A stretch of DNA of 64,000 bases from Planctomycetota bacterium (lineage in GTDB: Bacteria; Planctomycetota; Planctomycetia; Planctomycetales; Planctomycetaceae): NCBI GenBank assembly GCA_043777375.1, contig JAYWHX010000009.1:94918-158917 (forward strand), in the 5' to 3' direction. A model generated the notes under the pieces. The model saw nothing but the letters and a program-made list of their open reading frames with translations, searched no databases and was not told the origin of the DNA. The first letter of the stretch is position 1, and each line of letters starts with the position of its first letter. Positions 1,772 through 58,091 of the stretch are shown in pieces. A program made the translations under genes and the position numbers.

Positions 1772-2653
1772 TTACGACTGCTTGCTGGACGACAGGATGC
1801 GGAGCACCCACAGAGATCCGATGATTTGCAGGCAGGCTGCCAGCAGCGTCAGGCGGAAGCCCCAGGTGGAGTTCATCAGGTTCTGCCAATAGCCCGGATC
1901 ACGGATGCAGAAGAACACGAGGATCGCAGGGGGCAAGGTGATCATCAGGATGGCGACACCTCGACTGGCTGCGGTCGCAGCTGCCAGACGACCTTGGAAC
2001 TGAATCCGATCACGGACCGTTTCGGCCAGGCGCTGCAGCACTTGCACGAGGTCACCACCGGTTTCGCGGTGGACACCAAGTGCGGTGGCGAGGACGCTTG
2101 TGCTGACGAGTCCCGTGCGGACGGGTAGCTCTTCCATGGCTTGTGACAGCGGCAGACCGAAGGCGATGCGGTCGGTACAACGACGAAGTTCCGAACCGAG
2201 TGGAGCGGGGGTGTCGTTGGCCACGACTTGCAGGCAGGATTCAAGGCTACGTCCGGTCTTAGCCGCACGAGCGAGCTCGTCGATCATCGGGGGCATCTGG
2301 TTCATCATCACAGTCTGGCGACGTGAACGCATGATGACAGACACCACGATCGGAGCAATGAAGCCGATGAAGGCTGCCATGGCTGCGGTGATGAGGTTCT
2401 CTTGAATCACGTATGCGAGTCCGCCCAAGGCGACTCCGCAGCACAGGCACAGTGCCAGGACCATGCTGGGCGAGAGCCCCATCCCCGACTGAATCATCAG
2501 CAGGTCGAACCACGAATTGATGCGGTTGCCGACGTCTTCCGATTCGCCGGTGGCGAAGGTCTCCTGCTCACGCAGAATGCCTCCAAATTCAGGTCGGGGT
2601 GTGATTAGGTCGCTGGACATGTCTGCCTCGGGTCGGGTCAGTGGGGCAGACAT
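1772..2653 (-). CDS. tadB: Type II secretion system F family protein (TadB-like)
   Basis: Polytopic membrane protein with a T2SSF-like core (MPPMIDELARAAKTGRSLESCL). It lies directly downstream of cpaF. Confidence 0.75.
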   Translation of the reverse strand: MSAPLTRPEADMSSDLITPRPEFGGILREQETFATGESEDVGNRINSWFDLLMIQSGMGLSPSMVLALCLCCGVALGGLAYVIQENLITAAMAAFIGFIAPIVVSVIMRSRRQTVMMNQMPPMIDELARAAKTGRSLESCLQVVANDTPAPLGSELRRCTDRIAFGLPLSQAMEELPVRTGLVSTSVLATALGVHRETGGDLVQVLQRLAETVRDRIQFQGRLAAATAASRGVAILMITLPPAILVFFCIRDPGYWQNLMNSTWGFRLTLLAACLQIIGSLWVLRILSSSKQS

Positions 2654-2722
2654 TCCTGCCTGCCATTGCCATGTGGGAAACTCGATCAGCAGACAGGAGT
2701 GTCTGCTCTACCTGAAGGCCAA

Positions 2723-4111: not shown

Positions 4112-5404
4112 TTAGTGGCTGAGGAACAGTTTGAAGATGTATGGGTTGACCTTCTCGTCACTCACGCCGCTCATCCAAGCAGCGTCATGAGTTTCAAGAA
4201 GAGCGGTGCGGGTGGCGATCACGGCAGGCTGTGCCGTGATGTGTAGCCCTTGGCTGCCGTCATCATCCACGGCGAGGATGCGAATCCCGACCAAGTTGAC
4301 GACAGCTGCGTGACCAAGTGTGTTTGAGGTTGGTTGGTGATCAATGTAGAGACCACAGATGCGGGTCTGGCCGACAAGCTTCTGCAGCTCGTCTTGAATC
4401 GGTCCGGGCAGGGCTGCATCGACATCGAGAGTCTGCGGCCCCTGGTCGGTGCGGAACTCAGCTCCGAAAGACTTGAGGTCGGTCACAGTCCAGCCAGTTT
4501 GGACTTGGTTCGCGACTTGACTCTCATGCAGTCCGGTGCCGATATCGATGGTCAGCATGTTGGCTTTGGCGGCGTCTTCGTCCTTCGCTCCAACGGGAGC
4601 GGCATGCAGCAGGATTTCGGGAATTCCGTCGGACTCAGCGATCACGCTGCCCGACTCTGCGTCGTAGCCGTAGCGATCCATTCCCAACCGCATGTCGATC
4701 TGCCGCTGCCACGTATCGGGACGTCTTGGATCGGCGTGCGTGTACAGGATGGCCAGCGGCAGAGCCGGTACGGGTGAGTTGTCATTCGGCTGCACACCAA
4801 CGATTCGATTGTCGACACTGGCTTCGGCGATTGCCTGAGCGTCTCCTCCGGTCTTGCGAGTCAGTCCCCGAAAGAACAGAGCCACGGGATTGCCTCGACT
4901 CCGCAAGCGAGCCGCTTTGACCACGCACGTCGTGGGATGTTCGGTCTCAGCGACGAATTCCGCCTCGCCGGTCTCGGAGGACATCTCGATCGTCCCGATC
5001 AGGACATCTCCGTCATCGCCATCCTTCAGATCGACAGCTGTGCCGACTGAGAAGTTCTTGCGACCAATTGCAATCGCGGCGTCACGAGCAGAAGTCGTGA
5101 GATCCACAGACTTCGGATTGAGGCGAGCATCTGTCGCCAATTGCCCCGCTCCTGCCAGTGCTGCAGCTTCCGCTGCGGCCTGCAGTTCGACTTGGGCTGC
5201 GTCCAGCCAGAGCCGATCAAAGACCAGCGCCAGACAAGCCCCGACGAGCAGCAGGGCCATGGCGACCACCATGACGATGCTTCCACGCCGGGGACGTGCA
5301 GGCGAAGTCGTTCGGATTGGACGCAATGACAACACGGGTTGCCTCTTCTGTGCAAGAGAGTGTTCTCGATTGGAAACATTCCAATCGGCTGCAGCTGGGA
5401 TCAA
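4112..5404 (-). CDS. TadG-like pilus assembly protein (Tad N-terminal domain)
   Basis: N-terminal motif RRGSIVMVVAMALLLVGACLALVFD, followed by an Ala-rich helix typical of TadG/TadE N-terminal domains. Operon context supports the call. Confidence 0.55.
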   Translation of the reverse strand: MIPAAADWNVSNREHSLAQKRQPVLSLRPIRTTSPARPRRGSIVMVVAMALLLVGACLALVFDRLWLDAAQVELQAAAEAAALAGAGQLATDARLNPKSVDLTTSARDAAIAIGRKNFSVGTAVDLKDGDDGDVLIGTIEMSSETGEAEFVAETEHPTTCVVKAARLRSRGNPVALFFRGLTRKTGGDAQAIAEASVDNRIVGVQPNDNSPVPALPLAILYTHADPRRPDTWQRQIDMRLGMDRYGYDAESGSVIAESDGIPEILLHAAPVGAKDEDAAKANMLTIDIGTGLHESQVANQVQTGWTVTDLKSFGAEFRTDQGPQTLDVDAALPGPIQDELQKLVGQTRICGLYIDHQPTSNTLGHAAVVNLVGIRILAVDDDGSQGLHITAQPAVIATRTALLETHDAAWMSGVSDEKVNPYIFKLFLSH

Positions 5405-5468: not shown

Positions 5469-6650
5469 TTACGGGTTGCCTTCTGGTGCGCCGGTCACCT
5501 GACCAGCACCACCGCCGAAGCCTCCGGCGTTTCCGCCCGCTGCTCCCGCAGAATCACCACCGGCCGCTCCTTGAGGGACAGAGTAGAATCCGTTGCCGTA
5601 TCCTCCCCCGTTGCCGCCGAAGCCACCTCCACCGTAACCACCGCCGTAGCCGCCTCCATACCCACCGCCATAACCGCCGCCGTTGTCATCACGACGACGA
5701 TCCATTGGTGGTGGTGGTGGTTCGCTGTTCCCACCGTATCCGTATCCACCGCCGTAGCCGTTGCCATAGCCATTCGCATAGAGCGGCTGGTTGTAGTCAA
5801 ACCGCTCGATGGCATATCGATCGCTACGCAGTCCGTCCTTAAACGTCTGCAACCGACGGCTGGCTCCGGAGAAGATCTCGGTGACCGTCGGGCGCACTTG
5901 TTCGTTCTTCTTCTCTTCCGGGGTCTTCAGACCGAGGATCTCGTCCAGATAGGCCCGGTCCTGATCGCGGAGGGCGAACTGATTCTCGGCCTTGCCGTCT
6001 GGTGTATAGACAAGGGTCATCTGACCCTTCTTGCTGGCGAGCAGCAAAACGTTGGCATGATCGGGAGTCATCTCGAGAGTGACGGTGTTCTGACCACGAG
6101 TGGTCTCGGCACTTCCGCTCACGCTCTTGTTCATCGCGACGACCTTCACTCCCTTGAAGAGAGTCATGATCATGCCACCGTTCTTGGCAGCGTCCCGATA
6201 CCACGACGGAACAAAGTGGATGTCCACATGGTCGCCCGCTTTGACGAGCCCGTCGACTGCAGCTGTGCCATCGGTCAGGGAGATCGTCACAGCGCGCATG
6301 CCTGTCCCCACGTCAAGAGGTGGTCCATCATTGGGAGCGTACAGGTCGAGCGTGCTGATGGCTTCAGCCGCCTTGATCTTGGTCTTCACGACGCGACCGA
6401 GCAGGACGCGATCGCTCTTGACGATGTCACGGGTGATCGTCCCTTGAGACTTCTTGCCAATGGCCAGGTGAGCCTTGGTAATCACGGTTCCCGGTTCGAG
6501 ATCGGCTATGGCCATCGGCACATCGATCCGATCATCGACGGGTGGGGTCTCATCGCGGGCCAGCAGCTTTTTGCCGACGTAGGCCAGCACGAGGCCGCCG
6601 ATAATCAGCAGCATCAGCAGGGTGAGTGTGGCGGGTGACAGACGTTTCAC
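5469..6650 (-). CDS. cpaB: Flp pilus assembly protein CpaB/RcpC with Gly/Tyr-rich C-terminal tail
   Basis: N-terminal TM helix followed by a SAF-like segment (DLEPGTVITKAHL). The last ~103 aa are low complexity (GGGYGGGYGGGYGGGYGGGGFGG). Confidence 0.7.
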   Translation of the reverse strand: MKRLSPATLTLLMLLIIGGLVLAYVGKKLLARDETPPVDDRIDVPMAIADLEPGTVITKAHLAIGKKSQGTITRDIVKSDRVLLGRVVKTKIKAAEAISTLDLYAPNDGPPLDVGTGMRAVTISLTDGTAAVDGLVKAGDHVDIHFVPSWYRDAAKNGGMIMTLFKGVKVVAMNKSVSGSAETTRGQNTVTLEMTPDHANVLLLASKKGQMTLVYTPDGKAENQFALRDQDRAYLDEILGLKTPEEKKNEQVRPTVTEIFSGASRRLQTFKDGLRSDRYAIERFDYNQPLYANGYGNGYGGGYGYGGNSEPPPPPMDRRRDDNGGGYGGGYGGGYGGGYGGGGFGGNGGGYGNGFYSVPQGAAGGDSAGAAGGNAGGFGGGAGQVTGAPEGNP

Positions 6651-11874: not shown

Positions 11875-11935
11875 GAAGGTCGCCAAGGAAGCAAAGGGGT
11901 TCCTCCGACGTTTCTTTGCTTCCTTGGCGACCTTC
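11875..11935. repeat. Perfect 22-bp stem / 17-nt loop palindrome between converging genes
   Basis: gaaggtcgccaaggaagcaaag (11875-11896) is the exact reverse complement of 11914-11935. No U-tract follows on either strand. Confidence 0.8.
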
Positions 11936-19903: not shown

Positions 19904-20585
19904 ATGGGCCAGCCGCAATCCCGTGGAACACTGACAGCTTCGGAGCTACCCAGCAGAGTCTGTGGGGATTGGTGCATCCCCATCGTGATTGACCGAGCGG
20001 AGGGGTTGATGAAAAAAAGATCTGGCCAGCCTGGACTATGTGCTGGAATGTTCAGGCACACGGCTCTCGCTAATAAGGTGGGCACAACACCCCCAGCTGT
20101 CGACTTTTCCCGTCAAGTCCCAATCGCGGGGGTCACAATCGTTGAGCCCGCTGCGCCAGCCAGGGCCGCGTGGCTCAAACCTAGGTTTCCTCAGCAGGAG
20201 AGGTGAGTTGGTCGCCTTATCTCTGAAAAAGACACCGTCTCGCTGATTGAATCGCGACCCTGCCCAGCAGGTCGACTCACGGTCCCAGTGATCGATGTCC
20301 GGCACGCGGCCCTGGCTGGCGCAGCGGGCTTAGGTTGGGAGTTCTCTCCGGTGCCATAATATCTGGCCGCACACTGTCAGAGCCTCCTCACCCGCAGACT
20401 TGACGAATTCGGTAAAGTTGGGGAGTCTGGGAGGAAGAGATCATTCGGAATACGCGAACGGACTTGGAATCCATTTTCGATCATGCATTGCAAATGGCCG
20501 GAGTCGGTCATGGGGAATGATTCTGATGCCGATTCTCTGCCGAAGAGGGTTTCTCCGCTTGGCCACAAATTGATCGCAACACTCC

Positions 20586-32538: not shown

Positions 32539-34755
32539 ATGTTGAATAGAGCTGAAACCTTGGACTCCTCCCTCAACATCGCCGATCGACTTCGCGACTC
32601 CGCCCGGAAATGGCCATGGAGGCGAGCTGTGGTCTGTCCGGTGGGGCGAGATCGTGAAGGCCGGGCGACATACTCCCAGCTGACATTTCAACAGTTGGAC
32701 CAGGAGAGTGACCGCCTCGCGCGCGGACTTGTCGCCCACGGTGTGAAACCCGGTTGCCGTTTGGTGCTGATGGTCCGGCCTTCGCTGGAGTTCATCGCCC
32801 TGACGTTCGCACTGTTCAAGGCCGGAGCCGTAATCGTCTTGATCGACCCAGGGATGGGGCGGACGAACATCTTCAAGTGCCTGGAAGAGGTCGCCCCCGA
32901 GGGGTTCATCGCCATCCCGGCCGTGCATTGGATTCGGACGCTGTCACGAAAGTTCCCCAATACCAAGCTCAATGTCCGCGTCGGTGGACGCTGGGCACCG
33001 GGGTGCGTCGCGACGTACCAGACGCTCCGTGGGATAGGCTTCCAGCCTGTCATTGCTGTGAGCCAGATCGCAACGAACGAGAGCCAAGGTTCCGGTCCCC
33101 TCTCCCCCGCATTCAATATGGCCAACACGAACGACTCCACTGCGGGAGAGAGGACTAGGGTGAGGGGGACCACCGTGCCGCTCACGCCCCCTCACCCCGG
33201 CCCTCTCCCCCCCAGCCACGCCCACCCTGCACTCCACACCGATGGGGGGGGAGAGGGAGCAGAACCGCAGGCAGAACGACAGGCTGGAAGCCTATCCCAC
33301 GAAGAGTTCCCGATCGTCCGCACCCGGCCCACCGACCCCGCAGCTGTGATCTTCACGAGCGGCAGCACTGGTCCACCGAAGGGGGTGCAATACGAACATG
33401 GGATGTTCAACGCCCAGGTCGATCTGCTGCAACGGTTCTATGGCATCGAACCGGGCGAGGTCGACTTGCCCGGCTTCCCGCTATTCGCACTCTTCAACGC
33501 AGCGATGGGAGTGACGACCGTCATCCCGGACATGGACCCGACGAAGCCCGCGAATGTTGACCCGCTGAAGATCATTGAGGCCATCAACGACAACGGGGTC
33601 ACTCAGGCATTCGGGTCGCCCGCTCTCTGGAACCGTGTGGGATCGTACTGTGTCGAGAACGGCATTGAGTTGCCTTCGCTTCGCAGAGCATTGTCGGCGG
33701 GTGGGCCAGTGCCGATCCGCGTGCTGGAGATGATGACCAAGGTCTTGACCGGGACAGTTCCAACGGCGACAGAAGGTGCACCACGGAGGCACGGAGGCAC
33801 GGAGGAAGAGCCGTCAGCGGTCAGCCATCAGCCATCAGCCAGATGTTCTTCAGGTGACCACGTTACCACGGAGCCAGTGGCTAGCGACGTGCCGCTCACG
33901 ATGCCTTCTTCGCACATGGTGGATCTCTATCCCTCCTCCTCCGTGCCTCCGTGCCTCCGTGGTGAAAATCTTCAAGATGTTACCAGGGGGCTGACGCCGC
34001 CCCGCTCGCCGTTGCTTGCCGATCTGCATACGCCATACGGTGCGACCGAGAGCCTACCGGTGGCTTCCATTGGGGCGAGAGAAGTCCTCTCTCGCACAGC
34101 TGCAATGACTCGAAAAGGAGCGGGCACCTGTGTCGGGCGAGCGTTCCCCGGTGTCGACATCCGCATCATCCCGATCACCGAGGGGGCGATTGCTTCGATC
34201 AGCAAAACCCACACGCTCCCCCCTGGCGAGATCGGCGAGATCATCGTCCGCAGTCCCGCAGTGACCCGTGAATATTTCCGCAGGCCGGATCTGGCGGGAA
34301 AGGCAGACAGGAATGTCTGCCCTACTCTCGCGGCCAAGATCCCCGATGGCGAAACGTTCTGGCACCGCATCGGGGATGTCGGTTATCTCGATGACGTGGG
34401 GCTGCTCTGGTTCTGCGGACGGAAGGCTCACATTGTCTCCACCAACGATGGCTCGATGTATTCGGTGTGCTGCGAAGGAGTCTTTGATACGCATCCGCAG
34501 GTCTTCCGATCAGCGTTGGTCGGGATCGGGCCGAAGGGGCAGCAACAACCAGTCCTCGTGGTTGAACTGATGCCTGGCCATGGGATGGAAACAAAGATCG
34601 AAGGAGAGTTGCGACTGCTCGCTCAATCGTCGCCTCTCACCCAGACCATTGAGTCCTTCCAATTCATCGACGCGATGCCCGTCGACACCCGACACAACGT
34701 GAAGATCAACCGCGAGGCACTCGCCGTGTGGGCCAAGGAGCAGCTGAAGCGATGA
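32539..34755 (+). CDS. ANL-superfamily adenylate-forming enzyme (fatty acid CoA ligase family) carrying two in-frame palindromic insertions
   Basis: AMP-binding motifs [12 protein letters not shown] and TPYGATE, plus a C-terminal [21 protein letters not shown]. The 738-aa ORF is intact but holds two non-enzyme-like low-complexity blocks that coincide with DNA palindromes. Confidence 0.8.
33028..33301. mobile_element. ~270-bp nested-palindrome (MITE/REP-like) element inside the ligase ORF
   Basis: 24-nt perfect terminal inverted repeats (33028-33051 / 33278-33301). Inner stems lie at 33158-33168/33187-33197 and 33201-33213/33245-33257. Confidence 0.7.
33779..33964. mobile_element. 186-bp palindromic (MITE/REP-like) element inside the ligase ORF
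   Basis: 28-nt perfect terminal inverted repeats (33779-33806 / 33937-33964), each built from three copies of the 8-mer cacggagg. The length is exactly 62 codons. Confidence 0.7.
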
Positions 34756-34780
34756 GGCTCGACCTCCCTTGGTCCCGGCA

Positions 34781-34995
34781 GGGACATCCGACAGTAGCCC
34801 ACCGATTCATCGGTGGGTTTCGACACGCCTCGCGGATGCAGCCCCGAGAGGGGCGACAGAATTCGACGCCATCGCCAGAAGTGCCTTTCGGTGATCCCCT
34901 CACGAGTCGCGAGTTTCTGTCGTCCCTGAAGGGACTTCTCGCTTCGGCGGCTCTCGCTCCCACCATTGAAACGGTGGGCTACTATCGGGTGTCCC
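34781..34995. repeat. Intergenic palindromic element with two cccacc...ggtggg hairpins
   Basis: The arms gggacatccgacagtagcccaccg and cggtgggctactatcgggtgtccc match at 22 of 24 positions. Inner hairpins lie at 34798-34817 and 34959-34978. Confidence 0.6.
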
Positions 34996-35038
34996 TAGCG
35001 GGACAACGAAAGGGTGATCGCGAGATGAGGAGCCGCTC

Positions 35039-48628: not shown

Positions 48629-48665
48629 GTGTGTGCATCACAGAGGTCGGCACCCTCCAGAAATT

Positions 48666-48854
48666 CACCACGGAGGAAATGAGGCCTTCGGGTTCAGAGG
48701 GTTTTGACAGGATCAACAAGATCAACAGGATGAGATCAACGAAGCGTTTCCTCGGCCAGCATCCGGTAAATCCTCTCCATCCTTTCTCAAAACTCTTCGT
48801 CCTGCGCTGGTGTGAGGGCGATCCCCAATAGTCCTGCTCCGTGTCTCCGTGGTG
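48666..48854. repeat. 189-bp intergenic element with caccacggagg / ctccgtggtg termini
   Basis: The termini are inverted repeats and are shared with the intragenic element at 33779-33964. Internal gatcaac repeats are present. Confidence 0.5.
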
Positions 48855-57925: not shown

Positions 57926-58091
57926 GATTCTATTCTTCCACAGAGAACGGTTGAAGTCGTCGGTGTGGCAGCTTGGGAGCAAGCTGCCGTCATCGGGAGG
58001 GCGAGGCTCCTGCCGAGCCGTGTATGCGAGCAGACATTGTCTTAGACTCGCGGCTCAGCAGGAGCTTCGCCCTCCCGAACTCGACACAGCT

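Follow-up and report, generated by a model that had tools for sequence, protein, structure and literature searches.

GTAG-type REPs form tail-to-tail dimers with variable spacers, and the highest count of these repeats has been found in the PVC bacterium O. terrae, where they include the GTGG variant (PMC3733652). Intragenic, in-frame copies of GTAG and CGTC REPs are known from several phyla, in which single inserts contribute 20-30 aa and clusters as many as 43-82 aa, and different REPs occupy about one site in orthologous Xanthomonas recB genes (PMC3733652). In R. baltica, the GTAG-20 and GTAG-21 families have other sequences than the repeat described here, and their intragenic copies are found in hypothetical proteins only (PMC3733652). 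Inverted doublets of REPs are termed REPINs (Bertels & Rainey 2011, PMC3116915). Rickettsia palindromic elements (RPEs) are likewise inserted in frame in unrelated metabolic genes, and the added peptide has been judged compatible with the fold of the protein (PMC10969869). The preliminary description of the DNA analyzed here knew of the phenomenon for Rickettsia but not for planctomycete-type genomes. It has been described beyond Rickettsia, with in-frame REPs inside genes of O. terrae, a PVC bacterium, and GTAG-type REPs in R. baltica (PMC3733652). The phenomenon itself is therefore already known, and what is notable at this locus is the nesting of one element in another, the presence of three insertion sites in one gene, the turnover of at least four repeat families at one loop, and repeat arms that are conserved to an extreme degree. 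Our literature search returned no account specific to Rhodopirellula or Pirellulaceae, either of the repeat that we call family A or of such insertions in enzymes.

The window (the whole stretch of planctomycete DNA that was analyzed, 64 kb long) contains a gene for an adenylate-forming enzyme that is interrupted in frame by a 274-bp block. This block is a composite, namely a REP doublet of REPIN-like organization with a MITE-like element, D, nested in its spacer (Table 1). Its outer arms are perfect reverse complements over 24 nt, as had been claimed in the preliminary description, and they extend to an imperfect inverted repeat of 33 nt (91%; 33022-33054 / 33275-33307). A search for the arm 24-mer gave 2 matches in the window, compared to 0 in 100 shuffles. 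Both inner stems reported earlier are also present and longer than had been given, the first being 29 nt at 83% (33140-33168 / 33187-33215) and the second 13 nt at 100% (33201-33213 / 33245-33257), and an additional inverted pair lies at 33098-33121 / 33234-33257. The block keeps the frame of the gene and ends close upstream of the P-loop (aa 273-282), again in agreement with the earlier account. When folded as RNA, positions 33022-33307 form one nested hairpin of -156.1 kcal/mol, compared to a shuffle mean of -105.5 (z = -9.5), an energy that was reached by 0 of 200 shuffles. A search of the whole window against Rfam at gathering thresholds gave no match, so the hairpin is not explained by any known RNA family.

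Table 1. Palindromic insertions and neighboring repeat features at the ligase gene (positions in the window)
Feature	Position	Strand	Remark
PRK09274-family fatty-acid CoA ligase-like (OleC-related) adenylate-forming enzyme	32539..34755	+	738 aa
Family-A REP unit, left doublet arm	33028..33051	+	encodes RGIGFQPV, aa 164-171
Family-A doublet spacer, left portion	33052..33087	+	between A arm and left TIR of D
Element D, 179-nt, MITE-like, nested in A-doublet spacer	33088..33266	+	
Family-A doublet spacer, right portion	33267..33277	+	
Family-A REP unit, right doublet arm	33278..33301	-	encodes RQAGSLSH, aa 247-254
Site 2, in-frame hairpin, family B	33779-33964	+	encodes PRRHGGTE...SVPPCLRGE, aa 414-476
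Site 3, in-frame insertion	34291..34320	+	exactly 30 nt, 10 codons; one family-C GTAG REP
Family-C REP of site 3	34302-34325	-	GTAGGGCAGACATTCCTGTCTGCC; found in the tagged stem-loop scan
Family-F REP doublet in inverted repeat with 55-nt arms	34763..35013	.	intergenic, directly 3' of the gene

The identification of the host as an adenylate-forming enzyme was confirmed by a Pfam AMP-binding (ANL) match, by a fold match to ANL enzymes, and by the NCBIfam model PRK09274 ('fatty acid CoA ligase family'), whose 555 positions were matched in three separate stretches with a score of 648 bits, above the cutoff of 478. Scores for the OleC models were below their cutoffs (541 and 486 bits against 900 and 850). 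The gene is flanked by a DUF2513 gene and a DUF58 gene, with no ole genes beside it, and for this reason we call it OleC-related rather than OleC. Among 5,976 homologues the typical length is ~555 aa, and the nearest relatives span 554-729 aa. Because a sequence search of the PDB returned distant ANL enzymes only, with no close solved structure on which to map the insertion points, we turned to AlphaFold2 with an alignment of 114 sequences and to Foldseek. The model reached a mean pLDDT of 80 and a pTM of 0.80, with 484 residues at a pLDDT of 90 or above, and compared to complete solved ANL enzymes it gave target-normalized TM scores of 0.83-0.86. Long low-confidence segments free of structure were predicted only at residues 168-249 and 415-485, the latter being the family-B insert with pLDDT below 50, and a dip was seen at ~585-596. 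The first segment is the insert upstream of the P-loop, which departs from an otherwise confident ANL fold as a structure-free excursion, in keeping with the earlier view that the palindrome is carried as an extra peptide.

The gene looks functional, judging from its sequence and the predicted structure. The catalytic motifs are invariant across 114 sequences, and between the window and six orthologues codon positions 1 and 2 differ by 0.09-0.15 and position 3 by 0.38-0.51, a strongly purifying pattern of substitution. Loop lengths are congruent modulo 3 among the orthologues, both in family A (16, 172, 226 and 259) and in family B (92, 92, 122, 134 and 278), so every indel kept the frame, which argues against removal of the segment at the RNA level. 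This maintenance of the frame suggests that the block is translated, probably as a disordered loop of ~85 aa. One could instead suspect a decaying pseudogene or an assembly artefact in which the open frame is fortuitous, given that the three insertions add ~180 residues to a 555-aa enzyme and that ole-type partner genes are absent from the neighborhood. That explanation is extremely improbable, however, in view of the invariant motifs, the purifying pattern, the frame kept by all nine loop lengths, and the confidently predicted core fold. In addition, three contigs that derive from two sources encode the same ligase protein, so that a one-off misassembly is excluded, and a like architecture is seen in orthologues of other samples. 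The misassembly that the preliminary description had allowed for was thus not borne out, as the structure recurs in independent assemblies.

The outer arms belong to a widely dispersed repeat. When a 20-nt core of the arm was scanned across genomes, more than 119 stretches contained a match, and the possibility raised earlier that no other copy might exist therefore falls away. The matches are in Rhodopirellula, Novipirellula, Stieleria, Fuerstiella, Schlesneria, Anatilimnocola, and many Planctomycetota MAGs, and also in some Verrucomicrobiota, Hydrogenedentota, and Phycisphaerae. Within 834 kb of arm-bearing loci we counted 76 inverted pairs (doublets) and 60 solo arms; within the window, the block in the ligase gene is the one family-A copy. 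The unit consists of (C)GTGGGATAGGCTTCCAGCCTGTC, a spacer, and the reverse complement, with a canonical size of ~60-75 nt, and the spacers of the 76 doublets are mostly 9-30 nt long (median ~14, maximum 120). Conservation of the flanks does not go past the C/G pair that brings the arms to 24 nt. Each arm is a tagged stem-loop, made up of GT(G/A)G, an 8-bp stem (GATAGGCT/AGCCTGTC), and the 3-nt loop TCC; in the left arm of the window the layout is C, a GTGG tag, this stem with one G.T pair, and the TCC loop. GTGG is the tag in most copies and GTAG in five (L003, L019, L051, L021, and L032), while in Verrucomicrobia the arm occurs as a monomer with a GTAG or GGAG tag, the latter in three copies. 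The 19-nt stem-loop is identical across phyla.

These properties place family A among the GTAG-type REPs, which are short (20-40 nt), imperfect palindromes with a stem of 6-9 bp (8 bp here), an unpaired 5' GTAG/GTRG tag, and many dispersed, chiefly extragenic copies. The dispersal is evident from the cross-genome count. As to location, 67 of the 76 doublets (88%) lie outside long ORFs, compared to 33% of random placements, and 9 of them (12%) fall within a frame that runs for 200 aa or more with no stop, compared to 67% of random placements. Copies within one genome have identical spacers (L041/L052/L064/L115 with 17 nt, L023/L094/L108, L010/L050 with 46 nt, and L057/L074), whereas spacers are unrelated from genome to genome. 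Because the spacers are constant within genomes and different between them, the doublet is copied as a unit; two inverted REPs that are copied within a genome together with their spacer correspond to a REPIN. The family-A doublet does not have the combination of TIRs and target-site duplication of a DDE-type MITE. Flanking direct repeats at the doublets were no commoner than in shuffled pairings of flanks, and no target-site duplication was seen at the insertion site in the ligase gene. The clearest in-frame doublet in another enzyme is in a sulfatase (L077), where RGIGFQPV...RRAGSLSH takes up residues 166-195 and is covered by the sulfatase Pfam domain (residues 62-397). Other candidates for the block were rejected as well: a native low-complexity linker, since the arms recur as a repeat in many places; removal in the manner of an intein or intron, under which indels would be free to break the frame; and CRISPR or attC, as there is no array or cassette context.

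Family A thus resembles the GTAG REPs and REPINs of Di Nocera et al. 2013 (PMC3733652) in its 8-bp stem-loop with a 5' GT(A/G)G tag, its mostly extragenic location, its tail-to-tail doublets with variable spacers, and its occasional in-frame copies. It differs in that it is not among the R. baltica families of that study, in the identity of its stem-loop across phyla, and in the larger second element that lies in the spacer here, which brings the insert to ~85 aa. The likeness to RPEs is that a palindromic repeat is inserted in frame into an enzyme gene. RPEs, however, are single units of ~100-150 bp with a conserved peptide and are confined to Rickettsia, whereas the insert described here is a doublet of 23-24-nt REPs plus a nested element with TIRs; the two are set apart by organization, and kinship in sequence is not expected.

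D is an independent, TIR-bearing element that is also found intergenically. Its TIRs of ~20 nt (GGTTCYGSTCCCTCTCCCCC) lie at 33088-33108 / 33247-33266 and its internal hairpin at 33144-33168 / 33187-33213, so that the two inner stems noticed earlier are the internal hairpin of D and one pairing of its TIRs. An alignment to the copy in L081 runs from GGTTCCGG...CCCTCTCCCCC through ...GGGAGAGGGAGCAGAACC and stops exactly at 33088 and 33266. That copy is in a non-orthologous context, with a solo family-A arm ~125 nt away; ANL motifs are absent from L081, and the stretch has stops in all three forward frames when translated. Further copies are present in L111 and in L125, where D (4996-5173) lies downstream of the called orthologue gene and has no flanking A arms. 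With a length of ~179 nt, no coding capacity, ~20-nt TIRs, an internal hairpin, and intergenic dispersal, D is similar to bacterial MITEs such as ERIC, Correia/NEMIS, and Nezha, but unlike them it has no target-site duplication that is evident by eye, nor did we detect one in our test of the outer A arms, and a parent IS for D did not come to light. In metagenomes, exact matching found 0 instances of the junction between the D tail and the A arm and also 0 in a control with D alone, in a collection that may lack close relatives.

Comparison with orthologues shows that the block occupies a site that is empty in most homologues. Site 1, with ATYxxL on its N-terminal side and the strand that leads to the P-loop on the other, measures 30-36 residues in 72 of the 93 homologues that could be measured, with expansion in the other 21. 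Gene order from AMP-binding to DUF58 is common to most of the loci for six relatives, which are therefore taken to be orthologues, and in these syntenic orthologues the gap at site 1 that the preliminary description had predicted is clean. The finding that it had named as a refutation, a conserved homologous segment at this position in orthologues of distant genera, does not apply. Site 1 is empty in P0016, P0024, and every standard-length homologue. In the window, P0002, P0004, and P0010 it encodes RGIGFQPV...RQAGSLSH with a long interior, and in P0005 the A arms enclose a shorter one. A doublet together with D was found in P0002 and P0005, whereas nucleotide comparison revealed a bare A doublet in P0013, with a 16-nt spacer and ~64 nt overall. 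The left arm has the same sequence in P0002, P0005, and P0013; the left portion of the spacer in the window shows no conservation with the spacer of P0013. Other relatives carry GRHSCL...ADKNVCPT at this site (P0003 and P0021, the former being family C), GRAKLxLSRE...GSAGASPSR (P0006, P0007, P0012, P0017, and P0019, of which P0017 is family E), or SPLTPNPSPGGRGE (P0008, P0011, P0014, and P0015). This one loop of the enzyme has therefore hosted at least four palindrome families.

We consider it probable that two non-autonomous mobile elements, one nested in the other, inserted into a gene for a working adenylate-forming enzyme, at a surface loop that tolerates them. In the history that we propose, a family-A doublet would have entered first, after the 'ATYxxL' helix and ahead of the strand that leads to the P-loop, as two GT(G/A)G-tagged stem-loops of 23-24 nt arranged tail-to-tail in REPIN-like fashion and ~64 nt long as in P0013. 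The 179-nt D would then have gone into the spacer of the doublet, and subsequent indels would have altered the spacer, always by multiples of three. Insertions persist only in frame and at disordered loops, and selection that spares none but such stop-free insertions would account for the other palindrome families that orthologues carry in this loop. The order of these events is suggested by four orthologues, which themselves show recombination mosaicism. A parallel case of nesting is seen in P0016, where a family-E doublet lies within the loop of the family-B hairpin at the second site of the gene.

The perfect 24-nt inverted repeats that bound the block, and the finding of D adjacent to A more than once (as in L081, ~125 nt from a solo arm), could also suggest that the whole ~270 bp is one MITE, with the 24-nt repeats as its TIRs, and moves as a single unit. 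The spacer of 226 nt speaks against this, as the 76 doublets elsewhere have spacers of 9-120 nt and never ~226 nt, and in P0013 these arms stand only 16 nt apart at this very site. D, moreover, has TIRs of its own and occurs without A arms (L125 4996-5173), and the target-site duplication was not seen; a single transposing unit is accordingly very unlikely. The preliminary description had interpreted the block as one REP/MITE-type palindrome of ~270 bp carried in frame as an extra loop. An insertion, a dispersed repeat, and a gap in syntenic orthologues are all supported by our results, but the single element gives way to two nested ones.

For this pair of nested elements, the architecture points to mobilization in trans, most likely by an enzyme that would recognize single-strand hairpins (Y1 HUH or RAYT-like), as has been proposed for GTAG REPs. 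When the window and, in addition, the 119 loci (0.83 Mb) were scanned with strict motifs, a search in which a single-copy gene is easily missed, no ORF had a Y1/RAYT signature, and a Pfam screen of HUH-containing ORFs adjoining arms returned housekeeping genes only. The one planctomycete Y1 class in the literature consulted, 'class 3', has CnGA as its foot and not GTRG (PMC6006769).

The arms have changed far less than their surroundings. Among orthologues they diverge by 2.1% in family A and 2.3% in family B, compared to 13-32% mismatches plus indels in spacers and loops and 38-51% at third positions of the core. The arms hold 16 third-codon positions, and neither P0002 nor P0013 differs from the window at any of them, for which the chance is ~0.6^16, or ~3e-4 per pair. 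Neutral carriage alone does not explain arms that are nearly identical across species (~2%); such constancy could come from constraint by a recognizing protein, from concerted evolution with the genome's other copies, or from a function that the hairpins serve. The last of these would mean that the hairpins are retained under selection at the nucleotide level, either as mRNA structure that tunes translation or stability or as a protein-binding DNA site, and it would fit the low divergence of the arms, the stem-loop shared without change across phyla, and the concentration of five of the seven sequence-defined palindrome families sought in the window in or adjoining the ligase gene. Many orthologues, however, have no insert at site 1 or have unrelated families there, so that no gene-specific role of the hairpin is required, and copies of the same doublet are for the most part intergenic, with others in genes unrelated to this one. 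Since concerted evolution or constraint by the mobilizing enzyme could equally keep the arms constant, we regard retention for function as unlikely. The arms are the slowest-evolving nucleotides of the gene (~2% divergence compared to ~40-50% at synonymous sites). A further reading, also unlikely, is that they are not neutral and that their constancy and the four or more families at one loop reflect either a stem-loop-recognizing protein that continually homogenizes or re-targets the sites or hairpins exapted as regulators at the RNA or DNA level. If true, the recognizing protein would be a conserved factor, encoded by the host or by the element.

The preliminary description overlooked two further palindromic insertions in the same ORF (33779-33964 and 34291-34320). 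The first of them, site 2, is located ahead of HTPYGATE and consists of 26-nt family-B arms (CACCACGGAGGCACGGAGGCACGGAG and its reverse complement) with CACGGAGG repeats, the inverted repeat extending to 32 nt at 97%. The PRRHGGTE... insert is present in many close relatives, is replaced by another palindrome in P0005 and P0017, and is absent in 82 homologues of basal length. The only signs that family B is a dispersed repeat are that most homologues lack it and that a single partial arm is present at 48659-48685. At site 3, the insert was added between GA(G/T) and CC(G/T)AC, as empty orthologues read ...CCGGAG|CCGACA..., and the CTAC tag of its REP overlaps the native Pro-Thr codons. Site 3 is occupied in the window and P0003 only.

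Taken together, the orthologues offer a natural experiment, with an empty site, a bare doublet, a nested composite, and rival families at one loop, plus two more sites in the same gene, and they show small palindromic mobile elements lengthening proteins. For annotation, the elements account for ~180 'low-complexity' residues and for spurious small ORFs called on repeat clusters. For engineering, they mark three loops of ANL enzymes at which 10 to more than 100 extra residues are tolerated. They also raise the questions of what holds REP arms constant in coding DNA and why a stem-loop is common to the PVC group and other phyla.

Palindromes are not limited to the ligase gene. We sought seven sequence-defined families (A-G) in the window, of which five are in the ligase gene or adjoin it, and with up to 3 mismatches allowed, the 119 family-A loci had no match to families B, C, F, or G. 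When GT[AG]G-tagged stem-loops were sought in an unbiased way, the window gave 13 compared to 3.6 in shuffles, and the scan recovered families A, C, and F, all three of which have this architecture. The family-F arms (GTAGCCCACCGATTCATCGGTGGG) lie at 34794-34817 with their partner at 34959-34982. Palindromes of the window other than those in the ligase gene lie between long ORFs, among them an intergenic family-C doublet at 2641-2711.

The gene for the PRK09274-family fatty-acid CoA ligase-like enzyme holds in-frame insertions at site 2, where a second long hairpin is found, and at site 3, where the insertion contains a single REP (see table). The site-2 hairpin codes for a peptide starting PRRHGGTE and is common to many orthologues of the ligase, with a spacer that ranges in length from 92 to 278 nt. 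The site-3 insertion was seen only in the window gene and in the orthologue P0003. The CTAC tag of the site-3 REP shares bases with native Pro-Thr codons, and this overlap hints that the element inserted beside a GTNG-like target. Tandem peptide repeats of the PSTLNPQPS type were also observed at the N termini and near site 3 of the homologues P0003, P0012, P0031, P0049, and P0052, and these look like a further repeat family that has invaded the ligase protein.

Comparison of two orthologues, P0005 (locus L124) and P0017 (locus L125), revealed virtually identical DNA at site 2. The element present at site 1 differs between them, as do their C-terminal variable regions, a pattern that indicates recombination mosaics among the ligase orthologue genes.

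Palindromes were likewise located between genes in the window. Gene callers placed a 97-aa ORF on the family-F REP cluster that follows the ligase gene; it has no Pfam matches and is probably a spurious call.

Palindromic features in the window and in other loci (L numbers)
Feature	Location	Strand	Details
Site-2 hairpin	window 33779-33964		in frame in ligase ORF; 26-nt arms made of CACGGAGG repeats
Small GGGGGCTGACGCCGCCCC hairpin	window 33986-34003		just after site-2 hairpin
Site-3 insertion	window 34291-34320		exactly 30 nt (10 codons); one GTAG-tagged family-C REP
Site-3 family-C REP	window 34302-34325	minus	
Family-F REP doublet cluster	window 34763-35013		occupies gap between ligase and DUF58 genes
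Family-F REP doublet cluster	L001 2419-2712		ligase-DUF58 gap
Family-F REP doublet cluster	L123 2879-3172		ligase-DUF58 gap
Family-C doublet	window 2641-2711		intergenic
Family-E doublet	window 57993-58078		intergenic
Inverted repeat, perfect	window 11875-11935		22 nt; intergenic; no family assigned
Inverted repeat, perfect	window 20145-20330		28 nt, spacer 130 nt; intergenic; no family assigned
Family-A head-to-tail tandem array	L027 4174-4318		six copies of the arm, period 25; at contig end
Family-A head-to-tail tandem array	L019 6706-6751		two copies of the arm, period 26

Outside the window, the 19-nt family-A stem-loop GATAGGCTTCCAGCCTGTC is identical in contigs from Verrucomicrobiota, Hydrogenedentota, and Phycisphaerae (L021, L032, L035, L060, L066, L078, and L080), some of which are 0.2-3 Mb long. 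For REP families, identity of a stem-loop across phyla is unusual. The Verrucomicrobiota copies are monomers tagged with GTAG or GGAG.

Elsewhere in the window (5623-5772), CCACCGCCGTAGCC-like repeats form a run with a period of 12 nt, which on the minus strand would code for a Gly/Tyr-rich segment.
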